Source of the DNA: a virus
Lineage: Duplodnaviria > Caudoviricetes
Length of the DNA: 64,000 nucleotides
Virus record (IMG/VR): IMGVR_UViG_3300020450_001133
Strand: one strand, 5' to 3'
Part shown: positions 3,769 to 62,677 of the stretch, piece after piece
How the letters are laid out: every line of letters starts with the position of its first letter
Numbering within the stretch: position 1 is the first letter of the stretch
Position numbers and translations under genes: made by a program
The notes under the pieces: model-generated
Database searches by the model: none
What the model saw: only the letters and a program-made list of their open reading frames with translations
Told to the model about the DNA's origin: nothing

Positions 3769-3771
3769 AAA

Positions 3772-4704: not shown

Positions 4705-4754
4705 CTGTAAAATAAAATTCTGGTAACCTTTAATAAAAAATTAAAGTACGTTTT

Positions 4755-4772: not shown

Positions 4773-4799
4773 GTCTTGTAAACGGAGATTTGATTTAAA

Positions 4800-5932: not shown

Positions 5933-5934
5933 AA

Positions 5935-46534: not shown

Positions 46535-47172
46535 AAACAATATTAGTAGCAGGTTTGTTATTTTTGTTATGTAATCCTGCATTTGGAAGTACAACAGCAA
46601 ACTTAGGATTAACATTGGTTGACAGTGATGCAACATTTAACGGAAAGTTCAAACACAATGTAGAGAAAGGAAAGTGGCAAAGTAATTATGAAGCCGCTTA
46701 TGTATTTAAAAAATCAGACGGCATAGAAAAAACAAACGACTTTTATTTTCAGTTTAAAGAAAATTATGCACTTACAGACAAAAGTTATGTAATAGGTGTA
46801 GCACAATTTGACTACGACAAGTTTAGAACTGCATACGACACAAGAACAGTTGTTGGTGCAGGATACGGATATAAAATTTTAAGAACTGACAAATGGAAAG
46901 TAAGCAATGAAGTATCACTTGCATTTTTAAAAAGTGATAGTAATGAAATGATATTACGAAATAGTTTATGGGCAACATACAAGTTTAGTCCTAACTTAAA
47001 TTTAACAAACAAACTGTTATATGAATCAGGTAATGACATGTATTTGAGAAACAGCACAGACTTAATGTACAAACTTACAGATAAGATTTCAATTGGTGTT
47101 GGTAATACATATACAGATAATATAGAAACGAGAAATATTTTTACAATAAATTTAGCGATAAAATTTCAATGA
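46531..47172 (+). CDS. DUF481/YdiY-like outer-membrane beta-barrel protein
   Basis: Signal peptide; alternating beta-strand pattern; YALTDKSYVIGVAQFDYDKF...VGAGYGYKI; aromatic residue near the C-terminus (KFQ). Confidence 0.75.
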   Translation: MKTILVAGLLFLLCNPAFGSTTANLGLTLVDSDATFNGKFKHNVEKGKWQSNYEAAYVFKKSDGIEKTNDFYFQFKENYALTDKSYVIGVAQFDYDKFRTAYDTRTVVGAGYGYKILRTDKWKVSNEVSLAFLKSDSNEMILRNSLWATYKFSPNLNLTNKLLYESGNDMYLRNSTDLMYKLTDKISIGVGNTYTDNIETRNIFTINLAIKFQ

Positions 47173-48701
47173 GTATATACGACGAAGCCGCGGATAAGGC
47201 AAAGAAACAACTGGACGAGATAAGTCCTACAATGTGCTATGCAAAATGGTCACAGGTGTCCATGCACCTGACTAATGGTAAAACACATAGTTGTTATCAT
47301 CCGCCAACTCACAGTATAGACGTAAGCGAATTAAAAACTAATCCTAGTGCATTACATAATACTAAAGAAAAGAAAGAACAACGTGCATTAATGTTAAAAG
47401 GTGAAAGACCTGAAGGGTGTAGTTATTGTTGGAACATAGAAGACACAGGTGCAAGAAGTGATAGAGTATATCGTAGTGGAGAGTATTGGGCACAAAATGC
47501 CAGAGAAGAAATTAAAGAAGCAGGTGCTGATGGAAATATAAATCCACGTTATGTAGAAGTAAACTTTAATCAAGCATGTAACTTTAAGTGTAGTTATTGT
47601 AGTCCACATTTAAGTACAGCATGGCATGAAGAAATAGACGAACATGGACCCTATCAAATTAAAGATGGTGAGCATAACAATACCGACAGTTTAAACAAAG
47701 GCGGACTTATGCCTTTAAGAGTTGCACAAAAAGAAAATCCATATGTAACTGCTTTTTGGAAATGGTGGCCCGAACTGTATAAGAACTTGGAAGTGTTCCG
47801 TATGACAGGTGGTGAGCCATTAATGGATAGTAACACGTTCAAGGTGTTAGACTATGTATATGAAAATCCTAATGCATGGTTAGAAATGAGTTTAACAAGT
47901 AACATGTGTCCACCTAAACCAATTCTAATGGATATGCTTATTAACAAATTACAAAAAATGGAAGAGATACAAATATGGGAAGACCCACAAAAGTTTAATC
48001 CTAACAGTGGAAACAATTGGTATGTAGCACCAGCATGTAAAAACTTTTCTGTATTTGTTAGTGTAGATGGCTTTGGAAATCAAGCAGAGTATATGCGTAA
48101 CGGACTATGCTTTAAGACTCTACAGAACAACGTACAACGCATTTTAAGGGAGACGGACAACACAACTGTTACCTTTATTAATACATTTAACTTATTAAGT
48201 GTAACAAGTTTAAGAGAGTTCTTACAATGGATATTAGAACTAAGAGACCAGTATGCAAAAGATAGACAAGGTACAAAGTATATAGAAATACCTGATAGAG
48301 GTGGGCATAAGCATGACCCATATGAGATAGTACCTAAACAACGTATATGGTTTGACATACCTTTACTAAGAGCACCTTATTGGCAAAACATAGAAATATT
48401 GCCACAGTATTATCAAAGTTATTTAGAAGAAGCAATAGCATTTATGGAACTAAATCAAGCAGATGAGGATTACATAGATTACAGAGGATTTAAAGATTTT
48501 GAAATAGAAAAAGTAAAAAGAAATTTAGAAATTATGAAAGGTGGTAACAACCTTGACAGAGATAAAATGTACAAAGCAAGAGCAAACTTCTATAAATTTT
48601 TTACACAACATGACAGAAGAAGAGATACAGATTTTTTAAGAACATTTCCGGAAATGCAAGATTGGTGGGAAATTTGTGAGGAGGCAGACGCATTATTATG
48701 A
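47169..48701 (+). CDS. radical SAM enzyme 1 with N-terminal auxiliary Fe-S (twitch-like) domain
   Basis: CNFKCSYC; TGGEP; N-terminal CYAKW...SCYH...CSYC. Confidence 0.92.
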   Translation: MSIYDEAADKAKKQLDEISPTMCYAKWSQVSMHLTNGKTHSCYHPPTHSIDVSELKTNPSALHNTKEKKEQRALMLKGERPEGCSYCWNIEDTGARSDRVYRSGEYWAQNAREEIKEAGADGNINPRYVEVNFNQACNFKCSYCSPHLSTAWHEEIDEHGPYQIKDGEHNNTDSLNKGGLMPLRVAQKENPYVTAFWKWWPELYKNLEVFRMTGGEPLMDSNTFKVLDYVYENPNAWLEMSLTSNMCPPKPILMDMLINKLQKMEEIQIWEDPQKFNPNSGNNWYVAPACKNFSVFVSVDGFGNQAEYMRNGLCFKTLQNNVQRILRETDNTTVTFINTFNLLSVTSLREFLQWILELRDQYAKDRQGTKYIEIPDRGGHKHDPYEIVPKQRIWFDIPLLRAPYWQNIEILPQYYQSYLEEAIAFMELNQADEDYIDYRGFKDFEIEKVKRNLEIMKGGNNLDRDKMYKARANFYKFFTQHDRRRDTDFLRTFPEMQDWWEICEEADALL

Positions 48702-48952
48702 TAGGACAAGATTTATTTGATGCCTTAAGAAAAGGTGTGGTAACAGTAGAGTTTACCAAACTGGACACAGGAGAATTAAGAGTTATGCCATGCACTCTTA
48801 ATAATGAGATATCTGGACAGCAACTAGATATTAAAAGTTACAATACTAATGACACAATGGTAATGTACGGTTTAGATGTAAACGCATGGCGTGATGTCAA
48901 GATAGACACAATACAGAAATGGTATCCAGGATACCCACAAGATAAGGAATAA
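48698..48952 (+). CDS. WYL_2/Sm-like SH3 beta-barrel protein
   Basis: LRKGVVTVEFTK--TGE-RVM-CTL...V-G-D-NAWR---ID-I pattern. Confidence 0.7.
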   Translation: MIGQDLFDALRKGVVTVEFTKLDTGELRVMPCTLNNEISGQQLDIKSYNTNDTMVMYGLDVNAWRDVKIDTIQKWYPGYPQDKE

Positions 48953-48956
48953 CATT

Positions 48957-49280
48957 ATGTTAGACTTTGTAAAAATAAAAACTGACCTTGAATCTAGTTT
49001 TAATAGTGACATGGCAGATGGTGTTGACGTTAGTATAAATGTCAATGTGATTAATGAAGAAAACGGAAAGTTTTCAGTTAGTGTACTTGATAACAAGTGT
49101 ACTGTATATGATGATAATTTATCAAAAGCAGATATTACAGTAGGCTTTGTGGATAAAGACACAATGATAGACATGTTTACAAAAGGAGTAAATCCTACTT
49201 CACTTGTAATGAGTGGTAAGATGACTTTTAATGGAGACATGGGCAAAGGGAGATCCATCAAAGGATTATTTATGAAGTGA
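48957..49280 (+). CDS. SCP2 (sterol carrier protein 2) lipid-binding domain protein
   Basis: ADITV...DMFTKGVNPTSLVMSGKMTFNGDM signature; 107 aa. Confidence 0.8.
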   Translation: MLDFVKIKTDLESSFNSDMADGVDVSINVNVINEENGKFSVSVLDNKCTVYDDNLSKADITVGFVDKDTMIDMFTKGVNPTSLVMSGKMTFNGDMGKGRSIKGLFMK

Positions 49281-50038
49281 GAGTATTAATTTTTGGCTTG
49301 CCTGGTTCGGGTAAGACATATTTGGCAAGTCGCCTAAAAAAATATTTAGGTGACTATGCTGAACATTTTAACGCAGACAAAGTTCGAGCAGAAGCAAACG
49401 ATTGGGACTTTAGTGATGCAGGACGTAAAAGACAATCGGAAAGAATGAGTAAGTTAGTAACAGACTCTGTAAGCAATGGTAAAATTGCTATTGCAGATTT
49501 TATAGCACCGTTTAGATTATCTAGACAACAGTTTGATGCTGATTATAAAATTTGGGTAGACACAATATCAAATAGTAGATATCAAAATACAGATGCTATA
49601 TTTGAAAAGCCAACAAAGTTTGATTACAGAGTGAAGGAAAAAGATTTTAATAAAGATGCAATTAGAATTGCATGGGAGTTAGGCAGACGTGCTATATGGA
49701 ACAACAATGCACCAACAGTACAAATGCTTGGAAGATATCAGCCATGGCATGAAGGACATCAAGCATTGTTTGATAGAGCAATGGCTAAACATGGACAAGT
49801 ACATTTGATGATTAGAGATATGCAAACAGATGAAAATAATCCATATACTGCAAATCAAGTTAAAGAGAATCTCGAAAAAGAATTGAGATACAATGCAGGT
49901 AAAGTTAAAATAGAAATTGTTCCAAACATTGTAAACATAACTTATGGTAGAGATGTTGGATATAAAATTGAACAAGAGCAGTTTGATTCTAGTATAGAAG
50001 AAATAAGTGCAACAAAAATAAGAGAAGAACAAAATTGA
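49277..50038 (+). CDS. fusion of adenylylsulfate kinase-like domain and HxGH nucleotidyltransferase domain
   Basis: N-terminal P-loop GLPGSGKT, NADKVR, DFS-AGR--Q--R, IADFIAP, FEKP (CysC-like); C-terminal LGRYQPWHEGH...ISATKIR (cytidylyltransferase-like); GTG start. Confidence 0.8.
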   Translation: MRVLIFGLPGSGKTYLASRLKKYLGDYAEHFNADKVRAEANDWDFSDAGRKRQSERMSKLVTDSVSNGKIAIADFIAPFRLSRQQFDADYKIWVDTISNSRYQNTDAIFEKPTKFDYRVKEKDFNKDAIRIAWELGRRAIWNNNAPTVQMLGRYQPWHEGHQALFDRAMAKHGQVHLMIRDMQTDENNPYTANQVKENLEKELRYNAGKVKIEIVPNIVNITYGRDVGYKIEQEQFDSSIEEISATKIREEQN

Positions 50039-50562
50039 AAATAGCAATAACAGGACACACTAAAGGCATAGGCAAAGCATGTGCTGATATATTCAGCGAA
50101 CACGAAGTGGTAGGCTTTAGCAGAAGTAATGGGTTTGATATACAAGTAATAGAACCTATATTAGACTCTAGTGATGACTGTGATGTGTTTATTAATAATG
50201 CATATCATTATGACAATCAATTGGAACTTTTTAAACAACGTTATCTGTCTTGGAGAGGTAACAGCGAAAAAACAATAGTAAATATAATTAGTAAAGCAAA
50301 ATATTTAAAAGACAATGTAGACTATTATGAAAGCAAAAGAAATCTTGATGCTGGTGTAAAAAGATATCTTTTTAATCCTAGTCGTAAGTGTCGAATTATA
50401 AATGTTAATCCAGGATATGTATTAACAGAAGGAGCAGAACAAAATATTAAAATGTTTAAGCACCCACATATTACTGCTGAACAATGTGCAGAGTATATCA
50501 AGTGGGCAATAGAACAACCTATAGAAATATGGGATTTGTCATTATGGAAATTAAAAGGATAA
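50035..50562 (+). CDS. short, minimal SDR-family oxidoreductase 1
   Basis: ITGHTKGIG Rossmann motif, FINNA, YYESK (YxxxK), VNPG. Confidence 0.8.
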   Translation: MKIAITGHTKGIGKACADIFSEHEVVGFSRSNGFDIQVIEPILDSSDDCDVFINNAYHYDNQLELFKQRYLSWRGNSEKTIVNIISKAKYLKDNVDYYESKRNLDAGVKRYLFNPSRKCRIINVNPGYVLTEGAEQNIKMFKHPHITAEQCAEYIKWAIEQPIEIWDLSLWKLKG

Positions 50563-50565
50563 TGA

Positions 50566-50736
50566 ATGGAATTTAAAACCTATGAATGCATTGTTTGTGG
50601 ATGGATATACTATGAGGAACACGGTGTTCCTGAAGATGGTATTGAACCAGGAACCAAATGGGAAGATGTGCCTGATGATTGGTACTGCCCAGAGTGTGGT
50701 GTAGGCAAAGATGACTTCGACATGATAGAGATATAA
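50566..50736 (+). CDS. rubredoxin (56 aa; not in ORF track)
   Basis: MEFKTYECIVCGWIYYEEHGVPEDGIEPGTKWEDVPDDWYCPECGVGKDDFDMIEI: canonical CxxCG...W-CPxCG rubredoxin; fills the gap between the two SDRs. Confidence 0.95.
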   Translation: MEFKTYECIVCGWIYYEEHGVPEDGIEPGTKWEDVPDDWYCPECGVGKDDFDMIEI

Positions 50737-50737
50737 T

Positions 50738-51337
50738 ATGAAAAAGATAGCAATAACAGGACATACAAGAGGCATAGGAAAAGCATTAGCAGAAAGGCTT
50801 GACCAAGACAATTATGAAGTAAAAGGCTTTAGTCAAAGCACAGGATATAATTTACAACGTGTTAGTACAGTTAAAAAAGTTGTAAATGAGTGTTTAGAAT
50901 GGGACGCCGATGTGTTAGTAAACAATGCTTATGTACCAGATAATCAAGTAAGATTGCTATATACAATGTATGAACAATGGGTAAACACACCTAAGTTGAT
51001 AATTAACATGGGTGCTATAAGTAGTGACAGTATCAGCAACTTTGCACAAATGGGTTACAACAAAGACTGGACACCTTATGTTAGTGACAAAGCAAGATTA
51101 GATTGGGCATGTTTACAACTAGCAAATCAATTTAAGCCTGGTATGTGTAGAGTAACAATGATAAAGCCTGGCATGGTAGACACAGACAGTACTGCTTGGC
51201 TAAAAGGTGTAAATAATATAGAAGAGATTATGATGACTGCTGATAGTGTAGCAGAAATGATTGAGTGGGTAATAGAACTAGAGGATAATACTCAAATGAG
51301 AACTCTAAGTTTTGATGTAGGAAATTTTGATGGTTAG
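50738..51337 (+). CDS. short SDR-family oxidoreductase 2
   Basis: ITGHTRGIG, LVNNA, YVSDK (YxxxK), IKPGMVDT. Confidence 0.82.
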   Translation: MKKIAITGHTRGIGKALAERLDQDNYEVKGFSQSTGYNLQRVSTVKKVVNECLEWDADVLVNNAYVPDNQVRLLYTMYEQWVNTPKLIINMGAISSDSISNFAQMGYNKDWTPYVSDKARLDWACLQLANQFKPGMCRVTMIKPGMVDTDSTAWLKGVNNIEEIMMTADSVAEMIEWVIELEDNTQMRTLSFDVGNFDG

Positions 51338-53021
51338 AAAAGTCGGAGAGACACATAGAGAATTTAAGGCTAGGATGATTGATCCTGTGTCTGAAAGTTT
51401 CTGTGGCGCCAAATGGTACAATGCTACTATATGGCTAGGGCATGGAGGAACAACTAGTTGCCACCACCCACCCGCACATCAAATTGATTTAGAAGAAATA
51501 AAAACAAACCCAAGTGCTATTCACAACAGTAGACACAAAAAGAAAATGCGTAAGATGATGCAAGAAGGCACTAGACCTAAAGAGTGTGAGTATTGCTGGA
51601 AGATTGAAGATATGGGTAAAGACGCAGACGGCAATGAGCCTGTGTCAGATAGAGTATATAAAACTGTTATATATGAAGATAGAGATTTAAAACATATTTC
51701 AACACTAGACTCAAACTCAGATGTAAATTTAAAAACATGTGAAGTAGCATTTGATAGAACATGTCAGTTAGCATGTAGTTATTGTAACCCTGCATTTAGT
51801 AGTACATGGGTAAAAGATATTCGTACTAATGGAGGTTATCAAGGTATTAAGAGTGATGCAAGAGGACACTTTATAGATGATGCTCCGTATGCCGAGCCGT
51901 TTGATAGAGGAGAAGAAAATCCATATGTAACTGCTTTTTGGAAATGGTGGCCCGAGTTAAGCAAAGAGTTAGAAGAGATTAGAGTTACAGGCGGTGAGCC
52001 ATTAATGACTCCTAGCATATATAAATTGTTTGATTGGTTTAAAGAAACAGATGAGCCTAATGCTAAAAATATGCGTCTTGCTATAAACAGTAACTTAATG
52101 GCTAAAGAAGGATTGTTAAATAAGTTTATAGATGCTACACAACATATAGACCACTTCCACGTTTATACAAGTTGTGAAGCAAAAGGACCACAAGCAGAAT
52201 ATATTAGAGATGGACTTAATTGGGATATATGGACTAAACAGTTCGAACGATTTGCCAGTGAAGCAAGGTATGAAGGCGTACACATGATGATGACAATAAA
52301 TGCATTATGCTTAGATAGTATAACACAATTTTTAGATTGGACGTTAGAGATGAAACGTAAGTACGGACATCATGTACCAGGCATAAGTGTAAACATATTA
52401 CGTTTTCCAAGTTTCCAAAGTCCACTTACATTGCCAGACCATTTAAGAAAAATGTATCACGATGAGATTAGTAATTGGTTACAAGCAGTAAGAGACCGTG
52501 GAGAGAAATCAGAAATAACAGGTTCAGAACTTTTACAACCTTGGGAACAGGACCAGTTAAGCAGACTTATAGAATATTTAGATGTTGTAAAAACTCCGCA
52601 CAGGAATACAGCAGAACAAGACTTATTACATCATGACTTCAAAGTGTTTTACGAACAGTATGACGCAAGACGTGGATTTAATTTTAAAGAAACATTTCCA
52701 AGACTAGCAGAATGGTATGACAGTATAGCAGTTAAAGATATATCTGATGATGAAATTAATGATATACAATCACCAGACAGTCATGGTATAACAAATACTT
52801 TATATGCTAAACGTATTGTAACAGAAGATGGTGAAGTAAAAGTTGTAGAGATGAAAGTAAGAGGACGTCAAACAGGAGAAAGTGATGACGACTATGACGA
52901 TGAGAAATACAAAAACGAAGATGATTATAAACCAAATCCAAACATAAAACGTAAAGCAGGTAGCAGTATCGGTTGGGATACAGAAGTAGATGGTTTAGGT
53001 GGAGCAGTAGGCAATGAGTAA
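51330..53021 (+). CDS. radical SAM enzyme 2 with N-terminal auxiliary Fe-S domain and acidic C-terminal extension
   Basis: CQLACSYC; TGGEP; N-terminal CGAKW...SCHH...CEYC; closest paralogue of enzyme 1. Confidence 0.92.
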   Translation: MVRKVGETHREFKARMIDPVSESFCGAKWYNATIWLGHGGTTSCHHPPAHQIDLEEIKTNPSAIHNSRHKKKMRKMMQEGTRPKECEYCWKIEDMGKDADGNEPVSDRVYKTVIYEDRDLKHISTLDSNSDVNLKTCEVAFDRTCQLACSYCNPAFSSTWVKDIRTNGGYQGIKSDARGHFIDDAPYAEPFDRGEENPYVTAFWKWWPELSKELEEIRVTGGEPLMTPSIYKLFDWFKETDEPNAKNMRLAINSNLMAKEGLLNKFIDATQHIDHFHVYTSCEAKGPQAEYIRDGLNWDIWTKQFERFASEARYEGVHMMMTINALCLDSITQFLDWTLEMKRKYGHHVPGISVNILRFPSFQSPLTLPDHLRKMYHDEISNWLQAVRDRGEKSEITGSELLQPWEQDQLSRLIEYLDVVKTPHRNTAEQDLLHHDFKVFYEQYDARRGFNFKETFPRLAEWYDSIAVKDISDDEINDIQSPDSHGITNTLYAKRIVTEDGEVKVVEMKVRGRQTGESDDDYDDEKYKNEDDYKPNPNIKRKAGSSIGWDTEVDGLGGAVGNE

Positions 53022-54438
53022 GAAGATTAAACCTATCTGGTCCGGTGGTAATGTACACCCAAGTTCTCCTAACAAAGTTTTTTGTACAGCACCTTGGACA
53101 CATACATATATCAGTCCACAAAGTGAAAGACGTATGTGTTGTGCTAGTAGAGAAGAACACAAATTTCAAAAGCAATATATTGATGCAAGTAATGACGAAC
53201 GTTATGGTAAAGTAAGAGAGTCAGGAACTATAGAAGATTATAAAGAAAATATTGTTACATTAAAAGAACATTGGAACAGTCAATACATGATGGACATAAG
53301 AAAGAAACTTATGGCAGGAGAAAAGATTCCACAATGTGATGTATGCAACGACAACTTGCTTAGTCAAAGTAATTATAGACAATGGTTTACAGGATTCTTG
53401 TTTGAAGATAAAATAGATGAATGTTTTGACAGCACAGATGAAAATGGCTACACAACAATGGAGCCAGTCAGTTTTGATTATCGTGTTAGCAACTTATGTA
53501 ACTTTAAATGTCGTATGTGTGGAGAACAATTAAGTAGCAGTTGGGAAGCGGAAAAACGGAAAGAAGGACATTGGTCTCCAGAGAATCAACCTTTTATGAT
53601 TCCGGAAAACAAAAAGATTATTGAAAAGTTTCAAAAAGAAGTTGTGGAAGAAGAGTTTTGGGACTCTATATGTAGAGGCATAGTAGAAGAAATATATTGG
53701 GTAGGCGGTGAGCCTTTGATGTATGATATACATTGGAGGTCAATGAATAGACTTGCAGAAGATAATAACTTACATAAAGTTCATTTAAGATACAATAGTA
53801 ATTTAAGTAGAGTAAGATATGGTAAGCATTACTTGTACGACTGGTTACCACAAGCAAAAGATTGGACTATGTGTGCTAGTATAGACGGTATAGGAGACAT
53901 AGGAGAGTTTATTAGAACAGGACTCAATTGGGAAGAGTGGGATAGAAACTTTAGAGAAGGTGTAGCATTACCTGGTGGTAATGATAAAATGCTTATGGAC
54001 TTAACATTAACAGGCCCTGGATTATTTGGCTTACGTGAGTTTGTAGAGTATGCATTAGAACTAGATGTTAAAATAGAAACAAAGAATATGTTTGCATTCC
54101 ACCCAGACATAGTGTTTAGTTTTATGAGTTGGCCCAGACATATATTAGATAGAATAGTACGTGGACTAATAGAAGAACTTACTCCTATTATAACACCCAA
54201 GCAACAAACTTTAATTAATCAATTAAATCAGATATTAGCAACACCCACATTCGAAGAAAAGTTTCCTGATACACATGAGGATCAGTTCTTTAATGGTAGA
54301 CAATGGCAAAGAGAAATAGCCAGAATGCGTAATGACGGCGGTAATAGTGCTAGTATAACCATTGAAGAAATATATTCTGCAGATCCTGAGTTATGGGATT
54401 GGTGGAGCAGACCGGACCCAAAGCATAACTATCGTTAG
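53014..54438 (+). CDS. radical SAM enzyme 3 with N-terminal auxiliary Fe-S domain
   Basis: CNFKCRMC; VGGEP; N-terminal FCTAPW...MCC...CDVC. Confidence 0.92.
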   Translation: MSKKIKPIWSGGNVHPSSPNKVFCTAPWTHTYISPQSERRMCCASREEHKFQKQYIDASNDERYGKVRESGTIEDYKENIVTLKEHWNSQYMMDIRKKLMAGEKIPQCDVCNDNLLSQSNYRQWFTGFLFEDKIDECFDSTDENGYTTMEPVSFDYRVSNLCNFKCRMCGEQLSSSWEAEKRKEGHWSPENQPFMIPENKKIIEKFQKEVVEEEFWDSICRGIVEEIYWVGGEPLMYDIHWRSMNRLAEDNNLHKVHLRYNSNLSRVRYGKHYLYDWLPQAKDWTMCASIDGIGDIGEFIRTGLNWEEWDRNFREGVALPGGNDKMLMDLTLTGPGLFGLREFVEYALELDVKIETKNMFAFHPDIVFSFMSWPRHILDRIVRGLIEELTPIITPKQQTLINQLNQILATPTFEEKFPDTHEDQFFNGRQWQREIARMRNDGGNSASITIEEIYSADPELWDWWSRPDPKHNYR

Positions 54439-54447
54439 TAAAAATAA

Positions 54448-54478
54448 GATAAATAATAGTAGTTGTTAATAAACAACT
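54448..54478 (+). promoter_or_regulatory. putative late promoter GATAAATA followed by a 5'-terminal hairpin
   Basis: GATAAATA at 54448-54455; stem AGTTGTT/AACAACT at 54461-54478 begins at the predicted +1; AGGAG SD before ATG 54508. Confidence 0.65.
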
Positions 54479-54507
54479 GACAGAGACACATAAATTAGGA
54501 GACAAGA

Positions 54508-55842
54508 ATGGCCTCAATCGGATTCATTGGGGTGGGCAAGTTGGGACAAGCCTGCGCCGAGATGGTCGCCGAGGTTCATGATGTTGTTGGATATGATATT
54601 AATCCTGTAGAGCCTGAAAACTTTACAATGGTTGATACATTGGAAGAAGCAGTAATAGGACAAGATATTGTTTTTGTTGCAGTTCAAACTCCACATGATC
54701 CACAATATGATGGAAAGGCACCTACCAGCCATTTACCCAATAAGGACTTTGACTACTCGATAGTCATTGATGTTCTTAAAAAAGTAAATGCTGTTGCGAC
54801 TAAAGAACAATTAATAGTCCTTATAAGTACAGTTCTACCAGGAACTGTAAGAAGAGAATTTGTACCTATATTAACAAATACTCGCTTTATATACAATCCA
54901 TATCTTATTGCTATGGGAACTGTTAAGTGGGATATGGTTAATCCTGAAATGGTAATGATAGGTACACAAGATGGAAGTGAAACAGGTGATGCAAAAGAAC
55001 TTGTTGACTTCTATGAAACAATTATGCAAAACGATCCACGTTATGTAATAGGTACGTGGGACGAATGCGAATGTATTAAAGTCTTTTATAACACGTTTAT
55101 ATCAGCAAAGGTTTCTTTGGTAAATATGATACAAGACGTTGCAGAAAAGCAAGGCAACATAAACGCAGAAGTTGTTTGTGATGCTTTAGCAGATTCGGAC
55201 AGACGTATTATGGGACCAGGATATATGAAACCTGGAATGGGGGATGGTGGCGCATGTCACCCTAGAGACAATATTGCTCTACGTTGGATGGCTAGTGAAT
55301 TAAATCTAGGCTATGATTTATTCGATGCTGTGATGCTTTCAAGAGAAGTACAAGCAGAGAACATGGCTAAGAAATTAATAGCATTAGCAGACACGGAAGA
55401 AGGGTACATGTTCCAAGGCAAGTGGTGGAACACTTTACCAATTGTAATTGTAGGTAAAGCATACAAACCATTAGTGCCTTATGAAGCAGGATCAAGTAGT
55501 ATGTTAGTTGGACACTATGTAGAAAAGCAAGGATACGACTTATACTACTATGATGAACAGACAGGAGATATTCCTGCTGAAGAAATACTAAATAAACCTG
55601 CAGTATTTTTGTTGGCGCATAACCCCCAAATTACATATGGCGAACAACTAGACACAGTACCAGGATGGTACGACACACATAAAGTAACCGGAGCAGATGA
55701 GGCTCTTACAGTTGCTACAGGAAATGGGACAGAATTGTCTTTTGCAAAAGGCAGTATTGTTTTAGACCCCTGGAGAAAAACGCCTGATATAGAGGGAGTA
55801 GAAGTTATCCATTACGGTAACACTCGCAACAAGAATACATAG
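54508..55842 (+). CDS. ugd: UDP-glucose/GDP-mannose 6-dehydrogenase family protein
   Basis: IGFIGVGKLG, VAVQTP, STVLPGT, KVFYNTFISAKVS, GMGDGGACHPRD (catalytic Cys), GKAYKP. Confidence 0.9.
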   Translation: MASIGFIGVGKLGQACAEMVAEVHDVVGYDINPVEPENFTMVDTLEEAVIGQDIVFVAVQTPHDPQYDGKAPTSHLPNKDFDYSIVIDVLKKVNAVATKEQLIVLISTVLPGTVRREFVPILTNTRFIYNPYLIAMGTVKWDMVNPEMVMIGTQDGSETGDAKELVDFYETIMQNDPRYVIGTWDECECIKVFYNTFISAKVSLVNMIQDVAEKQGNINAEVVCDALADSDRRIMGPGYMKPGMGDGGACHPRDNIALRWMASELNLGYDLFDAVMLSREVQAENMAKKLIALADTEEGYMFQGKWWNTLPIVIVGKAYKPLVPYEAGSSSMLVGHYVEKQGYDLYYYDEQTGDIPAEEILNKPAVFLLAHNPQITYGEQLDTVPGWYDTHKVTGADEALTVATGNGTELSFAKGSIVLDPWRKTPDIEGVEVIHYGNTRNKNT

Positions 55843-55863
55843 AAGTATTTTTGGAGCAAAGAC

Positions 55864-57099
55864 TTGAGTAAAACATATTGCCCTTTACCATGGCAACACT
55901 TGGCAACTCACCCACATGGCGGTGTTACACTCTGTTGTATCAGTGACCACACGGGCGGGTTAAATAGGGCTCGTAACAACGACAAAGAATTCTTAAGTCT
56001 TAATAAGAGTAGTATAAACGAACATCTAAATAGCGAGTATTACAAAGAAGTTCGCTTACAGATGTTAAATAATGAGAAGCCTAAAGCATGTTTAAGATGC
56101 TATGAGGAAGAAGAGAAAGGACTAAAGAGTAAACGAAATCATGAGACCTCAGTTTTTCCACAGAACTCCGCCAATTGGGCACGAGAACTTACTGGTGAGG
56201 ATGGCAGTATTCCTATGGATCTTCGTTTTGTTGAGTTGCGTCTTGGCAACGTATGTAACGTCCGCTGTCGTACTTGCAATCCTGCGAGTTCCAGTAAATG
56301 GTTGGCGGACTATAAAGACATTGTTGAAAAAGCAGACTTCGTCAACAAAGGATACCTAGGACTAGACTATCCCAAAGATTTTAAGTGGCCCGAAGACGAC
56401 ACTTTCTATGACGACCTTTACGACTCAGCACCAAATCTAGAACTGCTATATATCAATGGCGGTGAACCTACATTAATAAAACAACATTGGACTTACTTAC
56501 AGAAGTTAGTCGATAGTGGACGTAGTAAAAATATTATATTGTGGTATAACATAAATTGTACTATGTTACCACCAATTGCTTTAGAGCTCTGGCCCGAGTT
56601 TAAAGAAGCAAGAATATGTTTGAGCATAGATGACCTTGGGGAACGTAATGCTTTTATAAGAACCAATACAGATTGGAATGCAGTTATTAAAACTGTGAAC
56701 ACATTAAAAGAGCATAGAGATAAATTGAACCTAAGGATTACTCAAACAGTAAGTGCATATAACTATGCAACGTTGCCTGAGTTTTTTTACTGGGCAGACC
56801 AGATGGGATTAGAAGTAGACATGAACTTTGTGTATGATCCTGATTACCTAAGTCCTGGAGTTATACCTCCTAAGGCAAGAGAGTTGATACATACAAAATT
56901 TAGAAAAATAATGGGCAACGACCATAAGTTAGGAACATTGTTAAGCATGTATAACAATGACGACTGGGACGAATTAAAATGGGAACAGTTTTGTAGATAC
57001 AATGACTTGATGGATAATAACGACCAAAGTAATTGGCGAGAAACATTTGAGAGATTAAACAAGTATGTGGAAGATAGCGGACACATTAGCATTTACTAG
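55864..57099 (+). CDS. radical SAM enzyme 4 with N-terminal auxiliary Fe-S domain
   Basis: CNVRCRTC; NGGEP; N-terminal YCPLPW...LCC...CLRC; TTG start. Confidence 0.92.
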   Translation: MSKTYCPLPWQHLATHPHGGVTLCCISDHTGGLNRARNNDKEFLSLNKSSINEHLNSEYYKEVRLQMLNNEKPKACLRCYEEEEKGLKSKRNHETSVFPQNSANWARELTGEDGSIPMDLRFVELRLGNVCNVRCRTCNPASSSKWLADYKDIVEKADFVNKGYLGLDYPKDFKWPEDDTFYDDLYDSAPNLELLYINGGEPTLIKQHWTYLQKLVDSGRSKNIILWYNINCTMLPPIALELWPEFKEARICLSIDDLGERNAFIRTNTDWNAVIKTVNTLKEHRDKLNLRITQTVSAYNYATLPEFFYWADQMGLEVDMNFVYDPDYLSPGVIPPKARELIHTKFRKIMGNDHKLGTLLSMYNNDDWDELKWEQFCRYNDLMDNNDQSNWRETFERLNKYVEDSGHISIY

Positions 57100-57844
57100 A
57101 CCGAAACTAGTAATACTCAGATGCTTAATGCATTTGGGTCTTGCTACGGCTTTAGTTCTAGGACCAAATGATTATTGGTGGGTTACATTAGGAGTTTACT
57201 TTTGGTTTGCAAGTATCGGTAATGGTGTTGGACAACACAGATACTTTGCACATAAAACATTTAAAACAAATAAGTTCTGGGAGTTAATGCTATTAGTAAG
57301 TGCCACATTGGCAAGTATTAGTAGTGTGTTTGGTTACATTGTAACGCACCGAGAACATCATAAGCATACAGACGATGAGCATGATCCTCATAGTCCACAT
57401 CATATGAGTTTATTCCAAAGTTGGACATTAGACTTAACAGATACAGGACGTTGGAATTTGCGTAATGCAAAAGACTGGATTAAGAACAAAGCAGTAATGA
57501 ATGCACACTATTATTTCTTTGCTTATATAATTGCATACAACGTCATATTAGCAATGATAGATCCATGGTTAGTGTTATATGCATACCTAGTGCCTGCAAG
57601 TTTATGTGTATGGGCAACTGGCGCCTTTAACACGTGGGGACATGGCAAAGGATTTAAACAATTAGGATATAGAACTTGGGACACACAAGACAAAAGTGTA
57701 AATCACCATTTAGTAAATTTAATAACATTTGGGGAAGGATGGCATAACAATCATCACAAATCACCGGGAAGTTGGCACCAGGGAGTTCAATGGTGGGAGT
57801 GGGATTTGAATGCACAAATAATAAAGTTGATTAAAAGCAGATGA
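57065..57844 (+). CDS. membrane fatty acid desaturase (delta-9/OLE1/DesC-like, di-iron His boxes)
   Basis: His boxes GQHRYFAH, HREHHKHTD-EHDPHSP, GEGWHNNHH; hydrophobic segments. Confidence 0.9.
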   Translation: MWKIADTLAFTRPKLVILRCLMHLGLATALVLGPNDYWWVTLGVYFWFASIGNGVGQHRYFAHKTFKTNKFWELMLLVSATLASISSVFGYIVTHREHHKHTDDEHDPHSPHHMSLFQSWTLDLTDTGRWNLRNAKDWIKNKAVMNAHYYFFAYIIAYNVILAMIDPWLVLYAYLVPASLCVWATGAFNTWGHGKGFKQLGYRTWDTQDKSVNHHLVNLITFGEGWHNNHHKSPGSWHQGVQWWEWDLNAQIIKLIKSR

Positions 57845-59202
57845 GCAAGTATAGTAAACCAGAAGAGGACAAAGGCTTTATAGATAAGACTGCCGAAGAA
57901 GTCAGGGAACTGGCTAAAGGCGATGCCTTCTGTATATTGCCTTGGATACACATGCACCCTTGGCCTCAAGGCAAAGTGTTTCCTTGCTGTCTTAGTAATA
58001 CAACTGTAGATGATATTGTAGGAGACTTAAATGTGCAGAGCATAGAAGAAGTGTACAATGGTCATCAATTGAAAAAAATGCGTAGAAACTTTTTAGCAAA
58101 TAAAAAACATCACAGTTGTACAAAGTGTTATGACCAAGAAGCATTGGGTAGAATAGATAGTTTAAGAATGAAAAGCAATGAAGAGTTTGTATTGCAACCT
58201 GACAACTGGCACAAGTTTGAAAACAAAATTGATTTAGTAAAGTCTACACAAAAGACAGGTAGAGTAGATGATGTAAACATGGCATATTTAGATATACGTT
58301 TTAGTAATATATGTAACATGAGATGTAGAATGTGTGGACCAGATTTAAGTAGTCTATGGTATCATGATGCTGTTGATAGTGTCTACAATGTAACACCTAA
58401 ACAAGCAATATATCAAATTAAAAAAGGAAGTCAAGACTTTTTATCACAGTTTGACCAATACTTACATACAGTTGAAAAAATATATTGGGCAGGTGGAGAG
58501 CCGTTAATCATGGACGAGCATTGGTACGTTATGAACAAGTTAGTAGAACTAGGACGTACTGATGTACAAGTTCATTATAATACTAACCTTAGTAAATTAA
58601 AATACAAAGACAATGACGCAATAGAACTTTGGAAAAATTTTAAAAATATTAATATAGGTGCAAGTTTAGATGACAGTCATGCTCGAGCAGAATATATTAG
58701 GAAAGGAACTGTTTGGTCAGACATAGAAGACAACATGAGAAGAATAAGAGATGAGTTACCTTCTTTAGATTTTTATGTAAGTGCAACAGCAGACTTTTTT
58801 AACATGCATTCAATAGTAGACTTTTACAATTATTTGCTTAAAGAAAATTTTATTAGTGTACAAGACTTTCAAGTAAACATATTATTTGGTAAGCCTATAT
58901 ACAGAGCAACATGTCATAAAGCAAGATACAGAAATGAGGCATTACATAGAATAAACAAATTAATAGAGTTCTTAGAAAAAGAAGATACATTGGGTAGAGC
59001 ATTAAACGGCTTTATACAATTAAAGAACTTTTTAGAAAGAGAAGATAAGAGTTACATGGTACCTGACACAATGAAGGAAATAAAAGAAATGGATACGTTT
59101 AGAAAAGAAGATTTCTTTAGTGTGTTTCCTGAATATAAAGGTTACAGAGAATTATACAACGAAGTAGATTCAACAGAGGAGTTTCAAAAGCAAGATGGAT
59201 AG
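57841..59202 (+). CDS. radical SAM enzyme 5 with N-terminal auxiliary Fe-S domain
   Basis: CNMRCRMC; AGGEP; N-terminal FCILPW...PCC...CTKC. Confidence 0.92.
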   Translation: MSKYSKPEEDKGFIDKTAEEVRELAKGDAFCILPWIHMHPWPQGKVFPCCLSNTTVDDIVGDLNVQSIEEVYNGHQLKKMRRNFLANKKHHSCTKCYDQEALGRIDSLRMKSNEEFVLQPDNWHKFENKIDLVKSTQKTGRVDDVNMAYLDIRFSNICNMRCRMCGPDLSSLWYHDAVDSVYNVTPKQAIYQIKKGSQDFLSQFDQYLHTVEKIYWAGGEPLIMDEHWYVMNKLVELGRTDVQVHYNTNLSKLKYKDNDAIELWKNFKNINIGASLDDSHARAEYIRKGTVWSDIEDNMRRIRDELPSLDFYVSATADFFNMHSIVDFYNYLLKENFISVQDFQVNILFGKPIYRATCHKARYRNEALHRINKLIEFLEKEDTLGRALNGFIQLKNFLEREDKSYMVPDTMKEIKEMDTFRKEDFFSVFPEYKGYRELYNEVDSTEEFQKQDG

Positions 59203-60418
59203 ACCAGAACACTTTTGCATATTACCTTGGATAAACCAAGAGGCTCGCACCAATGGGGATATTGGTGTGTGCTGTGTTATGCAAGAGACAGCACCAGGGT
59301 TAAATTTAGCAGATGGTCATACATTGAAAGACGCATGGAACAGCGAATGGCTTGCCAAGTTAAAACAAGACTTCTTAGATGGCAAGAAGCCGGATGCCTG
59401 TTACAACTGTTGGAATGAAGAAGAAGCAGGTATGGAAAGTAAAAGAAAAAGGGAGTTGTTAAAGTTCGGTCATCACGTAACTAACTTACAGCATCTTCGT
59501 CCTAAAAGTATGGATCTTAAATTGGGCAGTATTTGTAATACTAAATGTAGAATATGTACAAGTTTTGCAAGTAGTCAATGGGTACCTGAAGAAATAGAAC
59601 GTGACGGAGAAACAAATCAGTTAGCAAAGAAAATGGGCAGGCTAGGTATGTGGCCCGAACACAATGAAGAGTTTTGGTTAGAACTAGAAGACCAAATAGA
59701 AGAAGTAGAAAGTTTAGAGTTTTTTGGGGGCGAGCCTTTCCTCATCAAGAGACATTTTGAAATCTTAGAAGGGCTCGTAGAGAAGGGTCGTGCTAAGGAT
59801 ATTACCTTAAGTTACAACAGCAACGGAAGTATTTATCCTGAACACGCCCTTCCAATTTGGAAAGAATTTAAAGACGTACAAGTGTTCTTTAGTATAGACG
59901 GTATTGGAGAAAGATTTAATTATATAAGACATCCACAAGACTTTGACCATGTTATGGAAAACTTTTGGAAATTTAAACAGCATGACTTTATAAGAACAAA
60001 CTTATTTTATACTGTTGGTATATTCAATGCATTCTATATGGACGAACTATTGAACTACGACTTAGAACATAACTTAGGTTGTGATATACATTTTAACATG
60101 GTGTATGTGCCACAACAAGTAAGTGCTAAAGCATTGCCTTTAAAAGCAAAGCAGGCTCTTACAGAAAAGTTTAAAGGGAATAATGATCCTAGAATACAAA
60201 GTACATTAAACTTTATAAACAATGAACATTATGAGAACATGATGGAGTTGTTTGTAAACCATACAGTATTCAGTGACAAGTATAGGAATGAAAGTATTGC
60301 AAATACATTTCCTGAATTGTACGAACATGTTAAACCATGGTTTGAAAAAGCAGAAGCCATGGAGTTAGTAAACACAATGGAACTTATAGGTATAGATAAG
60401 AAAAATGAAAGATTATAG
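59195..60418 (+). CDS. radical SAM enzyme 6 with N-terminal auxiliary Fe-S domain
   Basis: CNTKCRIC; FGGEP; N-terminal FCILPW...VCC...CYNC. Confidence 0.92.
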   Translation: MDRPEHFCILPWINQEARTNGDIGVCCVMQETAPGLNLADGHTLKDAWNSEWLAKLKQDFLDGKKPDACYNCWNEEEAGMESKRKRELLKFGHHVTNLQHLRPKSMDLKLGSICNTKCRICTSFASSQWVPEEIERDGETNQLAKKMGRLGMWPEHNEEFWLELEDQIEEVESLEFFGGEPFLIKRHFEILEGLVEKGRAKDITLSYNSNGSIYPEHALPIWKEFKDVQVFFSIDGIGERFNYIRHPQDFDHVMENFWKFKQHDFIRTNLFYTVGIFNAFYMDELLNYDLEHNLGCDIHFNMVYVPQQVSAKALPLKAKQALTEKFKGNNDPRIQSTLNFINNEHYENMMELFVNHTVFSDKYRNESIANTFPELYEHVKPWFEKAEAMELVNTMELIGIDKKNERL

Positions 60419-61736
60419 TAAAACATTTTGTCCTTATCCTTGGATACATGTAATGACACAGCCGAGTGGTACTGTGAACTTTTGTTGTGTTGCTAATGGT
60501 CAGATTAAAACTGATGATAGTTTTATGGAGTTTGATGGTATGCAAACAGGAACTCCTATACTATTAAACAAAGGCGGGGATATGAGAGATGTTTGGAATA
60601 GTAAGCATTACAAACATATCAGAAAACAAATGGACACCGGGGAACGTGTTATTGGTTGTGAACCATGCTATGACTTGGAAGATTTGGGGATACCAAGTTA
60701 TAGAGTAAACTATATAAAAGACTGGTTAGGCTTTCATCGTAATGCAGATGAAATCGAAAGGATAATAGAAAAGAGTAGAGAGAATGATTATCATGTCGAT
60801 GAAATGCCTCAGTACTTAGACTTTAGACTAGGTACTATGTGTAACTTGAGATGTAGAATGTGTCAAAGTCAAAACAGTAGTGCAATTTATAAAGAACTTA
60901 AGAACGATGATTTGTACACACAAGAAGAAAGAGACTTTGTAGTTAAGCATACACATTGGAACGATTTCAGTGATTACACTCAGCCATGGTTCGATACACC
61001 AGAGTTTTTAGAATCAGTTGAAGAGTGGTTGCCTAATGTAAACAGATTATACTTTACAGGAGGTGAGCCTACTATTATACAACGCACTTATTGGATATTA
61101 GAAAAGTGTGTAGAGTTGGGTATTGCTAAAGATATTGATTTAGTATTCAATAGCAATATGACAAACATTCAGCCAAGGTTTCTAGACTTACTAGCCAAGT
61201 TTAGAGATGTGTTGATGTGTTTAAGTGTTGATGGCTATGCACAATACAACGAGTATATCAGAAGTGGTAGTCGTTGGAATATTGTAGACAAACATATAAG
61301 AGATTATGCAACATCAGATGTTGTAGGTAATATATTGTTTAGTCCTGTTGTACAAATATATAACATACTAAACATAACTCAACTATTAGACTATGCAGAA
61401 GAGATTACAAAGTTTAGTGGTAGAAGAATAGATATCAGTTTTTTAATGAACAACTATCCTAAATGTTTAGACATTAGAAACTTACCTAAGCATATCAGAG
61501 TAGAGGGCCAGAAAAGATTACGAGACTGGCTTAATACAAGTAAATATTTCGTAGACGATGAAAGGAATATCGCAACCGTAGAAGGCATAATCAAAGCATT
61601 GGAAGATGACAATGTGAATGCAGATGCTGACAAGCAAATGCAAATCTTTAAAGAGTACACAGAGTTACTTGATAGTAAACGTAACCAAAGTTTTAAAGAT
61701 AGTATACCTGATTTATGGAGTATGTTAAATGAGTGA
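60405..61736 (+). CDS. radical SAM enzyme 7 with N-terminal auxiliary Fe-S domain
   Basis: CNLRCRMC; TGGEP; N-terminal FCPYPW...FCC...CEPC. Confidence 0.92.
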   Translation: MKDYSKTFCPYPWIHVMTQPSGTVNFCCVANGQIKTDDSFMEFDGMQTGTPILLNKGGDMRDVWNSKHYKHIRKQMDTGERVIGCEPCYDLEDLGIPSYRVNYIKDWLGFHRNADEIERIIEKSRENDYHVDEMPQYLDFRLGTMCNLRCRMCQSQNSSAIYKELKNDDLYTQEERDFVVKHTHWNDFSDYTQPWFDTPEFLESVEEWLPNVNRLYFTGGEPTIIQRTYWILEKCVELGIAKDIDLVFNSNMTNIQPRFLDLLAKFRDVLMCLSVDGYAQYNEYIRSGSRWNIVDKHIRDYATSDVVGNILFSPVVQIYNILNITQLLDYAEEITKFSGRRIDISFLMNNYPKCLDIRNLPKHIRVEGQKRLRDWLNTSKYFVDDERNIATVEGIIKALEDDNVNADADKQMQIFKEYTELLDSKRNQSFKDSIPDLWSMLNE

Positions 61737-62502: not shown

Positions 62503-62677
62503 AGACAAAGAAGATATGAATGGGCTTGGACCTGTTGACAATGTTGTTGACATGGGTGGGTTAGAAGATAACTCTGTACCAAAGCCAATAGAGAAAAAAA
62601 TGACAGACGAAGAAGAGGAAAGGTTAAAAAAGAAATTAGAAAAAATTAGGAAGGCCGATCCTTTTATTTACAGATAG
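62495..62677 (+). CDS. small hypothetical protein
   Basis: 60-aa coupled ORF ending KIRKADPFIYR. Confidence 0.65.
   Translation: MNKDKEDMNGLGPVDNVVDMGGLEDNSVPKPIEKKMTDEEEERLKKKLEKIRKADPFIYR

Follow-up and report, generated by a model that had tools for sequence, protein, structure and literature searches.

An array of seven anciently diverged radical SAM genes in a marine T4-like jumbo phage and its possible role in carbohydrate tailoring

The stretch of DNA analyzed here (64,000 nucleotides of the IMG/VR record IMGVR_UViG_3300020450_001133; hereafter the window) carries, on its + strand between positions 47169 and 61736, seven genes encoding radical SAM (S-adenosylmethionine) proteins, designated R1 to R7 in order of position (Table 1). 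They form the center of an island of genes that abut or overlap by 4–35 bases, in a block of + strand open reading frames (ORFs) that is uninterrupted from approximately 36 kb to the end of the window. The window derives from a marine jumbo phage of the T4-like type: comparison with the PHROGs database identified ORFs for a T4 gp55-type late sigma factor, a gp46/47-type SbcCD, a gp5-type hub-lysozyme and a 1485-aa gp6-type wedge protein.

All seven radical SAM proteins match the NCBIfam family NF033640, “twitch domain-containing radical SAM protein” (N_Twi_rSAM), with E values of 1e-87 to 1e-109. The matches extend over practically the whole 398-position model (from position 1–2 to position 385–398 in each protein) and reach 291–364 bits, the curated cutoff being 170 bits. 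Since seven matches with E<1e-86 fall within 14.5 kb, the array is not a chance assembly. An earlier note, made from the sequence without database searches, had pointed to seven CxxxCxxC proteins at this site, and these are now recognized as full-length members of a single family.

Pfam analysis detected the Radical_SAM domain in all seven proteins and, in five of them, a SPASM-type Fe-S domain located N-terminally to the barrel (residues ~6–112, ahead of Radical_SAM). The order of domains is therefore permuted with respect to the classical SPASM/twitch layout of anSME, BtrN and MoaA, in that the auxiliary domain precedes the barrel. No Cys-rich C-terminal domain was found in the seven proteins; their C-terminal part is helical, as judged from the alignment and from a structural model of R5.

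Other radical SAM models (viperin, MoaA, anSME, maturases acting on peptides that are synthesized ribosomally and modified post-translationally [RiPPs], and the tetraether lipid synthase Tes) gave only 15–32 bits, against cutoffs of 131–650. Thus, prokaryotic viperin (NF038283) scored 20–30 bits (cutoff 180), MoaA (TIGR02666) 15–28 bits (cutoff 284), anSME (TIGR03942) 15.8 bits (cutoff 349) and the models of RiPP maturases 19–32 bits (cutoffs 340–650). The paralogues did not cluster with a single known housekeeping family. Literature searches on the family name and on the N-terminal twitch domain returned no characterized member of NF033640, so that membership supplies a name and not a function.

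These scores bear on the possibility that the enzymes act in nucleotide or DNA chemistry, either by producing modified nucleotides (viperin- or MoaA-like) or by hypermodifying phage DNA, with the sugar genes of the island glycosylating the bases. Partial, low-scoring matches to the prokaryotic viperin, MoaA, QueE and NrdG models and to viperin structures point in this direction, and radical SAM enzymes, as well as carbamoyl or sugar transfer, reportedly can be part of phage DNA hypermodification pathways. We nevertheless consider such a role very improbable, given that the matches do not exceed 15–30 bits (cutoffs 131–450), that the island lies in the late structural/host-recognition block, away from the replication and nucleotide-metabolism genes, and that Pfam detected no DNA-binding genes, no kinase acting on hydroxymethyluracil and no base-transfer genes.

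Pairwise identity among the seven paralogues is 21–34% in a seven-way alignment. The residues invariant in this alignment include four cysteines of the auxiliary cluster (C23, C42, C84 and C87), the CxxxCxxC cysteines (C137/C141/C144), the GGEP motif (G214-G215-E216-P217), N245, S298 and R310. CxxxCxxC and the GGE-type SAM-binding motif are also invariant over 66 sequences representing seven orthogroups. The further motifs listed in the earlier note (SS-W, N-N, S..YIR..W and D-RR..FPE, besides GGEP) are visible as described, apart from the first, which is replaced by SSAI in R7. The proposed division into two subgroups agrees with both the alignment signatures and the phylogenetic tree: R1 and R2 form one clade (AKW / SC-H / C-YC), while R3–R7 share the signatures PW / CC / CxxC. 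None of the seven reading frames is interrupted and all cluster ligands are kept, so the copies are intact, as had been stated. Two clusters are predicted for each enzyme: a SAM-cleaving [4Fe-4S] cluster at CxxxCxxC and, housed in a BtrN-like twitch domain, an auxiliary [4Fe-4S] cluster whose ligands are all Cys.

The latter prediction draws on a PDB sequence profile search, in which profile positions 7–84 aligned to the twitch domain of BtrN (residues 179–257; E 2.6e-5). The alignment speaks for an auxiliary [4Fe-4S] cluster that is fully ligated and occupies a permuted position. The twitch cysteines of R5 (C31, C49/C50, C93 and C96) follow a Cx17-18C...CxxC pattern, a spacing which we take to be that of the BtrN auxiliary cluster. 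BtrN (2-deoxy-scyllo-inosamine dehydrogenase; PDB 4M7T) is the founding twitch enzyme; its auxiliary-cluster domain is homologous to that of the window proteins, it acts on a carbohydrate-like substrate, and its pathway is rich in sugar aminotransferases and in carbamoyl or glycosyl transfer. However, the twitch domain of BtrN is C-terminal and that of the window proteins N-terminal, sequence similarity outside the twitch and SAM motifs is negligible, and no structural match in the PDB exceeds a template modeling (TM) score of 0.4.

An AlphaFold2 (AF2) model of R5, built from a 56-sequence alignment, reached a per-residue confidence (pLDDT) of 91 and a predicted TM score (pTM) of 0.88; it replaced a single-sequence model with pLDDT 43. 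All full-length structural matches of this model (TM 0.7–0.84) are uncharacterized phage or metagenome-assembled genome (MAG) proteins, including one of phage KVP40. Comparison with the PDB yielded only matches to the common barrel (Foldseek TM 0.3–0.4). With VIA-align, BlsE, CteB, MoaA, SkfB and anSME scored Z 11.8–12.5, and SuiB, viperin and GDGT-MAS Z 11.2–11.5, a spread of ~1.3 Z across sugar- and peptide-acting enzymes. The top VIA-align match was the cytosylglucuronate decarboxylase BlsE (Z 12.5 over 223 residues), which is statistically tied with peptide-acting enzymes (within 1 Z); its substrate is a uronic-acid sugar, which fits the NDP (nucleoside diphosphate)-sugar 6-dehydrogenase gene adjoining the radical SAM genes of the window. 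The SPASM or twitch maturases anSME, SkfB, CteB, SuiB and TigE are the best PDB sequence/fold matches (TigE, PDB 8VPO, E 1.4e-9; anSME, Foldseek E 5e-7; Z 11.5–11.9). They contain two or more Fe-S clusters and are matched by the window proteins in the common barrel only, and their NCBIfam models give 15–30 bits with these proteins (cutoffs 340–650); unlike SPASM/RRE maturases, the window proteins have neither a RiPP recognition element (RRE) nor a C-terminal SPASM domain.

To follow the seven genes in other genomes, IMG/VR was scanned with R5, which identified 46 loci, and copies were counted with a hidden Markov model (HMM) of the seven paralogues. Some 35 of the loci contain 5–8 copies inside 21 kb; for distant loci the counts are lower bounds, as divergent genes were missed at the HMM threshold. 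In a maximum-likelihood tree of 95 copies, every window paralogue falls in its own orthogroup (Shimodaira-Hasegawa-like approximate likelihood ratio test [SH-aLRT] support 99–100), the members of which hold the same syntenic position in other phages. The R2 orthogroup, for example, is represented in the related loci L004, L020, L030 and L053 (79% identity; ratio of nonsynonymous to synonymous substitution rates [dN/dS] about 0.1). An eighth orthogroup, R8, occurs in relatives and is absent from the window.

Mean identity is 0.52–0.85 within orthogroups versus 0.25 between them (maximum 0.34). Nineteen alignment columns are universally fixed, and a further 16 are fixed in each orthogroup yet differ among orthogroups. 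Pairwise dN/dS, calculated by NG86/YN00, is 0.04–0.27, values that are approximate, with a robust direction, because dS is mostly saturated. The separate orthogroups, the excess of within- over between-group identity and the low dN/dS indicate that the copies are old, specialized and under purifying selection: the duplications are ancient and each copy has been kept. The retention of diverged copies claimed in the earlier note is thereby upheld, and there is no sign of the relaxed selection (dN/dS near 1) that would have contradicted it. The array is thus real, intact and functionally differentiated, and the seven genes probably encode functional, anciently diverged N-terminal-twitch radical SAM enzymes.

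The same data dispose of the view that the copies are redundant or decaying products of a recent tandem amplification without functional differentiation. The copies are indeed tandem members of one family, and this family amplifies elsewhere: some proteins contain double or triple modules, and one MAG has dozens of copies. However, identities of 21–34%, orthologues in other phages, dN/dS of 0.04–0.27 and intact cluster ligands throughout speak against it, and the orthogroups, the selection values and the orthogroup-specific fixed columns effectively refute it. Orthogroups and selection also provide the strongest support for distinct roles of the copies. The separate regiospecific steps envisaged in the earlier note are, in view of the orthogroups, the 16 group-specific columns and the purifying selection, a reasonable assumption in the form of different roles on one pathway.

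One paralogue deviates from the general pattern. R5 is only 52–55% identical to its orthologues in L001, L011, L013 and L017, while R4, R6 and R7 are 64–81% identical to theirs on the same contigs (72–81% in the comparison used for dN/dS); short contigs with 75–92% identical R5 are also known. The pattern points to locally accelerated divergence, or to recombination, at R5.

Many contigs from marine metagenomes, the longest reaching 346 kb (orthologue-bearing contigs as long as 320–346 kb), also carry arrays of this type, with the common gene order radical SAM, NDP-sugar dehydrogenase, radical SAM (with or without a desaturase), DUF6071, small ORF, carbamoyltransferase and giant ORF. Near-identical island DNA is present in marine metagenomes of at least five studies, and contigs with the island occur in more than 100 assembly blocks. 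Megablast revealed no DNA-level match between the island and cultured phages; the nearest cultured relatives, as judged from the wedge protein (~37% identity), are the jumbo myoviruses PA5oct, Atu_ph07 and SCTP-2.

The array is located in the variable block 3′ of the giant baseplate protein, among virion genes. The 6269-aa ORF directly 3′ of the gp6-type wedge gene occupies the position of the VrlC/gp7 substitute known from marine T4-like phages. The same layout, in which a variable block follows a giant baseplate protein, was described in pelagimyophages, whose hypervariable host recognition cluster lies 3′ of the giant VrlC baseplate gene and includes radical SAM “cassettes”, glycosyltransferases (GTs) and lipopolysaccharide (LPS)-type genes (Zaragoza-Solas et al. 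2020; PMC7029224). A 183-kb marine T4-like viral genome with 12 radical SAM genes and Fe-S assembly genes has also been reported (Nishimura et al. 2017; PMC5332604). Both papers merely mention the radical SAM genes, and the window phage belongs to a lineage with larger genomes. Marine T4-like phages with multiple radical SAM genes are thus already published, without functional follow-up. Together with the ~35 IMG/VR loci and the 100 nearest ESM-Atlas clusters, which are 93–100% viral, these reports do not bear out the statement that such an array is unusual in a virus; it is a further case of NF033640 arrays in marine T4-like phages and no oddity of one virus.

Metatranscriptome assemblies from the same samples as the DNA contain 100%-identical pieces of R1, R2, R3, the dehydrogenase/R4 junction, R5, the desaturase gene, and DUF6071 with the small ORF. 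These pieces are compatible with transcription, although DNA carry-over is possible. Scans of the island for sigma-70 promoters and terminators remained at background level, which, together with the overlapping genes, would fit a single long transcription unit. There is a single occurrence of the T4 late-promoter consensus TATAAATA in window positions 1–64000 (193–200, - strand), compared to 11.1±3.2 expected from shuffles; in this phage, which encodes a gp55-type late sigma factor, the motif is thus depleted by ~3 standard deviations, and it marks no island gene start.

Table 1. Features of the window discussed in the text, grouped by kind.
Feature	Position	Strand	Evidence and remarks
R1, 510 aa, subgroup 1	47169-48701	+	NF033640 323 bits; orthologue L038:5432-7006, 54% identity, dN/dS 0.06
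R2, 564 aa, acidic C-terminal tail, subgroup 1	51327 (ATG 51330)-53021	+	NF033640 320 bits
R3, 474 aa	53014-54438	+	NF033640 291 bits; orthogroup SH-aLRT 99-100, 76% identity, dN/dS about 0.1
R4, 411 aa	55864-57099	+	NF033640 357 bits; orthogroup SH-aLRT 100, 80% identity, dN/dS 0.05-0.09
R5, 453 aa	57841-59202	+	NF033640 364 bits; AF2 model pLDDT 91
R6, 407 aa	59195-60418	+	NF033640 330 bits; orthogroup SH-aLRT 99, dN/dS 0.09-0.17
R7, 443 aa	60405-61736	+	NF033640 349 bits; orthogroup SH-aLRT 100, dN/dS about 0.13
gp55-type late sigma factor	3772-4638		
Single 6269-aa ORF, directly 3′ of gp6-type wedge gene	17433-36242	+	
Phosphomannomutase (PMM; HAD, eukaryotic PMM type), upstream part of island	40263-40958	+	PF03332 E 1.6e-24
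GT8 (glycogenin-like) candidate, paralogue of 44029	40951-41841	+	Family profile vs glycogenin nucleotide-binding/DxD half, E 1.7e-8
GT8 (glycogenin-like) candidate, paralogue of 40951	44029-44919	+	Same family profile
Conserved 332-aa protein, VDGDN motif, GT-A candidate (weak lead)	45536-46534	+	phmmer
DUF481 outer-membrane beta-barrel family protein, directly upstream of R1	46531-47172	+	PF04338 E 1.2e-20
WYL_2 small beta-barrel protein	48698-48952	+	PF10902 E 2.9e-8
SCP2-like lipid/hydrophobic-ligand binding protein	48957-49280	+	PF02036 E 2.6e-9
P-loop kinase (APS-kinase-like) fused to cytidylyltransferase-like segment	49277-50038	+	PF01583 E 6.8e-10; PF01467 weak
Short SDR (short-chain dehydrogenase/reductase)-like protein	50035-50562	+	Pfam adh_short, weak
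Rubredoxin, 56 aa	50566-50736	+	PF00301 E 6e-22; CxxCG...CPxCG present
Short SDR-like protein	50738-51337	+	Pfam adh_short E 1.3e-9
NDP-sugar 6-dehydrogenase relative	54508-55842	+	PF00984, PF03721; PDB relatives GDP-mannose / UDP-glucose 6-dehydrogenases
Membrane di-iron desaturase/hydroxylase-family protein, 259 aa, between R4 and R5	57065-57844	+	PF00487 E 3.9e-11
DUF6071 protein, N-terminal GxSH motif	61729-62502	+	PF19547 E 1.6e-5, just under cutoff
Conserved 60-aa ORF between DUF6071 and carbamoyltransferase	62495-62677	+	C-terminus ...EEExLKKKLExLRKxDPF(I/V)YR
O-carbamoyltransferase (NodU/TobZ/NovN family), runs off window end	62685-63998	+	PF02543 E 1e-41, PF16861 E 3e-27

As shown in Table 1, the radical SAM genes are interspersed with and flanked by genes for the activation, oxidation, transfer and decoration of sugars, enzymes of sugar-nucleotide and glycan metabolism being co-located in the island. 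PHROGs gave no match for the island genes other than the radical SAM genes. The relative of NDP-sugar 6-dehydrogenases is encoded by the most conserved gene of the island, which phmmer recovered from almost every array locus (E 1e-237 to 1e-256), and the O-carbamoyltransferase (PDB relatives NovN, GdmN and TobZ) is syntenic in all array loci. The core conserved across loci consists of the radical SAM set, the WYL_2 gene (also 3′ of R1 in L004, L020, L030, L050 and L053), the dehydrogenase, the DUF6071 gene (syntenic 3′ of R7), the small ORF and the carbamoyltransferase. By its GxSH motif the DUF6071 protein may be an SGNH-like esterase or acyltransferase. Around the core lie sugar genes that vary from locus to locus, in the window those for PMM and the GT8-like transferases. 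Other variants of the island add NeuB (L004 and L007), a weak sulfotransferase-family match (L007), a methyltransferase, a 2-oxoglutarate (2OG) oxygenase and an aminotransferase.

Genes for sugar metabolism accompany the family elsewhere as well. In the distant phage loci L034–L048, homologues of the two GT8-like candidates adjoin N-twitch radical SAM genes, and in L044 a DegT/EryC1 aminotransferase gene (E 8e-91) does so. Distant phage lineages with few N-twitch genes carry GT8-like genes, the 45536 family and DegT/EryC1 aminotransferase alongside, and a nucleoside triphosphate (NTP)-transferase gene is found beside an eight-copy array on a Bacteriovoracaceae chromosome. The association with genes that activate, oxidize, aminate, transfer and decorate sugars is thus a recurrent and in part independent one, and it leads us to favor a carbohydrate substrate; it is by gene neighborhood that the radical SAM enzymes would be expected to act on sugar intermediates. 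We give about an even chance to the reading that a carbohydrate, probably destined for the virion or cell surface, is tailored by successive radical steps.

Under carbohydrate tailoring, a sugar 1-phosphate or NDP-sugar of mannose or uronic-acid type would be made and then transferred by the GTs. Each paralogue would abstract a different hydrogen atom of the sugar or glycan, leading to oxidation, epimerization, deoxygenation or C-C chemistry, with the twitch cluster possibly accepting or supplying electrons, as in BtrN. Electrons for the radical SAM clusters and/or the di-iron enzyme may come from the phage rubredoxin, a candidate donor. The product would be O-carbamoylated last, and would most likely decorate virion host-recognition proteins or the envelope of the infected cell.

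Several observations weigh against this reading. No family member has a known substrate and hence none anchors the assignment, and the fold searches (Foldseek, VIA-align) do not separate sugar-acting from peptide-acting relatives. The sugar-acting radical SAM enzymes BlsE, DesII and AprD4 belong to pathways with single such enzymes, not sets of 7–8; to our knowledge, one or two enzymes of this class are the most that any sugar pathway employs. Among the neighbors, the dehydrogenase matches TIGR03026 with E 8e-42, below the NCBIfam cutoff of this model, and the 45536 protein is only a weak lead as a “GT” (ESM-Atlas values of 0.83–0.87 to GT2/GT92/CgtA clusters). A single-copy bacterial member in Reichenbachiella faecimaris has an uninformative gene context without sugar genes, RNA-library contigs are no proof of transcription, and both the TPR (tetratricopeptide repeat)-fused family members and the conserved 60-aa ORF fit a protein or peptide substrate equally well.

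Such a substrate constitutes the main rival explanation, in which the paralogues would be maturases (introducing epimerizations, thioether or C-C crosslinks, or oxidations) of the 60-aa ORF product or of the giant baseplate/fiber proteins. The small protein could then be a precursor resembling those of RiPPs or cofactors (compare MftA and PqqA), with the sugar genes glycosylating the product, as for mycofactocin. SPASM/twitch enzymes are typically peptide or protein maturases, and TigE, SkfB, anSME, CteB and SuiB are among the nearest PDB matches. Moreover, the 60-aa ORF, with its invariant C-terminus, is present in every array locus covering the position and is more conserved than the radical SAM enzymes themselves: its C-terminal 25 residues hardly vary across about 30 related loci, in contrast to the N-terminus and the linker, which differ in sequence and length. 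The position of the island among virion genes, 3′ of the 6269-aa baseplate protein, is also in agreement with a protein substrate, as is the resemblance of the GT8 relatives to glycogenin, a protein-glycosylating enzyme.

On the other hand, Pfam and NCBIfam revealed no RRE, PqqD domain, protease or exporter, and the 60-aa ORF has no Pfam family match. This ORF is found only in one phage lineage (its commonest variant on 158 contigs) and is absent from phage loci with 1–4 N-twitch radical SAM genes; its co-occurrence with the array is therefore not independent evidence. Six conserved C-terminal residues cannot occupy 7–8 enzymes. Fusion of the same radical SAM module to long arrays of TPRs, which are protein-binding repeats, is seen elsewhere and would suit a protein substrate, but TPR domains also occur in polysaccharide-export scaffolds. 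A predicted complex of R7 with the 60-aa product scored 0.00, which counts neither for nor against binding. On balance, we regard modification of a protein or peptide as unlikely, though deserving serious attention.

A third explanation concerns lipids. The radical SAM enzymes, the desaturase, rubredoxin, the SCP2 carrier and the SDRs could act on a host membrane lipid or on lipopolysaccharide by modifying its acyl or isoprenoid chains, with the DUF481 protein displaying or exporting the product. The desaturase between R4 and R5, the SCP2 protein, the two SDR-like genes, DUF481 and rubredoxin, with which AlkB-type di-iron enzymes are usually paired, are all present in the window, and weak partial matches to Tes and GDGT-MAS were obtained. 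However, the Tes matches reach only ~20 bits (cutoff 450), and DUF481, SCP2, the SDRs and rubredoxin are absent from all related loci compared and specific to the window variant. The desaturase, found in L001-type loci and confined to one sub-lineage, is missing from L004-type arrays that keep all radical SAM orthogroups. As this patchy distribution marks the lipid-type genes as accessory and not core, lipid or glycolipid tailoring appears improbable.

The window-specific cassette between R1/WYL_2 and R2 comprises SCP2, kinase/nucleotidyltransferase, SDR, rubredoxin and SDR genes. Conversely, relatives (compare L001, positions 2852–8045) contain a cassette of methyltransferase, 2OG oxygenase, aminotransferase and R8 genes between the dehydrogenase and R4, which is missing at the corresponding site of the window (54438–55864). 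These swapped cassettes show that the island is modular. The 45536 family recurs in distant loci (phmmer E 1e-70 to 1e-102), has no PDB match in sequence profile searches and is related, with E 1e-10 to 1e-21, to the giant ORFs: the 45536 protein is homologous to a domain of the 1000–1700-aa ORF located 3′ of the carbamoyltransferase (L009:16563-21134, L001:16605-21299, L004:16814-20374 and others). The island is thus bracketed by the same domain, the downstream partner of which would lie past the end of the window. The possibility that the 39908, 40951, 44029 and 45536 genes encode purely baseplate proteins was considered and dropped, the 40951/44029 family matching glycogenin.

Returning to carbohydrate tailoring, a more specific version may be put forward tentatively, as a rather doubtful proposal when taken in all its parts. 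The 7–8 N-twitch enzymes would form a radical “assembly line”, each performing a different C-H functionalization on a mannose- or uronic-acid-derived glycan that is attached by GT8 enzymes to virion host-recognition proteins and then O-carbamoylated. A variant in which the 60-aa product, ending in ...DPF(I/V)YR, serves as scaffold for a RiPP or cofactor made by the phage is less likely. If true, the “assembly line” would combine radical carbohydrate chemistry with virion glycosylation in a manner without characterized precedent, and would be abundant in the surface ocean. Given the host-recognition location, the product could determine adsorption, host range or virion protection in abundant marine phage-host pairs. 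Seven or eight orthogroups side by side, acting on one likely scaffold, would also offer a natural series for the study of regio- and stereoselective hydrogen-atom abstraction by the permuted twitch architecture. Experiments on this question are within reach, given the map of orthogroups and the existence of distant relatives in culture (Vibrio phage K566 and KVP40-like phages).

The family extends far beyond this lineage. When 1.84 billion representatives were searched with a profile of the seven paralogues, 6,882 clusters (50% identity) were retrieved with E≤1e-30, including proteins with two or three modules. The NF033640-type family is mostly viral, and is among the biggest blocks of unassigned radical SAM chemistry in ocean phages. 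What the window proteins share with other members is the N-terminal four-Cys twitch followed by the CxxxCxxC barrel; distinctive here are the seven diverged copies in an operon-like block. Single cellular copies were detected in Reichenbachiella, Agaribacillus, a Synechococcus and Beijerinckia.

Multiple copies were also encountered in sequences assigned to bacteria. In Bacteriovoracaceae UBA6144 (L059:6043-18039), eight tandem N-twitch radical SAM genes lie on a genuine bacterial chromosome segment, with genes for Obg, RsfS and ribosomal protein L21 immediately upstream and the NTP-transferase gene nearby; none of the partner genes of the phage island is present there. A MAG labeled Elusimicrobia MJ-2014_bin-0981 (L070, L074, L076, L078, L086, L088, L093 and L121) and L069 contain dozens of tandem genes for proteins of 550–1130 aa, in which long N-terminal TPR arrays are fused to an N-twitch radical SAM module; an L069 protein has two radical SAM modules with TPRs between them. 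If the bin is truly cellular, the Elusimicrobia-labeled MAG represents an extreme amplification of the family outside phages.

Radical SAM arrays were further found on L060 and L061 (RefSeq MAG Haliscomenobacter sp. EUL_031; 183 and 148 kb), L056 (MAG “uncultured Gammaproteobacteria”) and L004 (GCA_028255665.1, “bacterium”). L060, L061 and L004 also encode homologues of the 40951/44029/45536-family genes, L060 in addition a homologue of the tail-fiber-like 36904 gene, and L056 shares the desaturase, DUF6071, small ORF and carbamoyltransferase of the window. These contigs look like jumbo-phage contigs binned into bacterial MAGs.

Among cultured phages, only distant members of the family were identified, in KVP40-like Vibrio phages, in K566/K567 (five places) and in Ralstonia phage RsoM2USA. 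These phages carry 1–5 distant N-twitch-like radical SAM genes (18–27% identity; fold TM 0.58 to KVP40 Q6WHP4), without orthologues of the seven window orthogroups, and none of the neighboring genes bears a sugar-gene annotation. The distant phage locus L044 has further divergent radical SAM genes, missed at the HMM threshold, at positions 8854-10005 and 15333-15953; one of them has an N-terminal SPASM match, and a nitroreductase-like gene and the DegT aminotransferase gene lie nearby.

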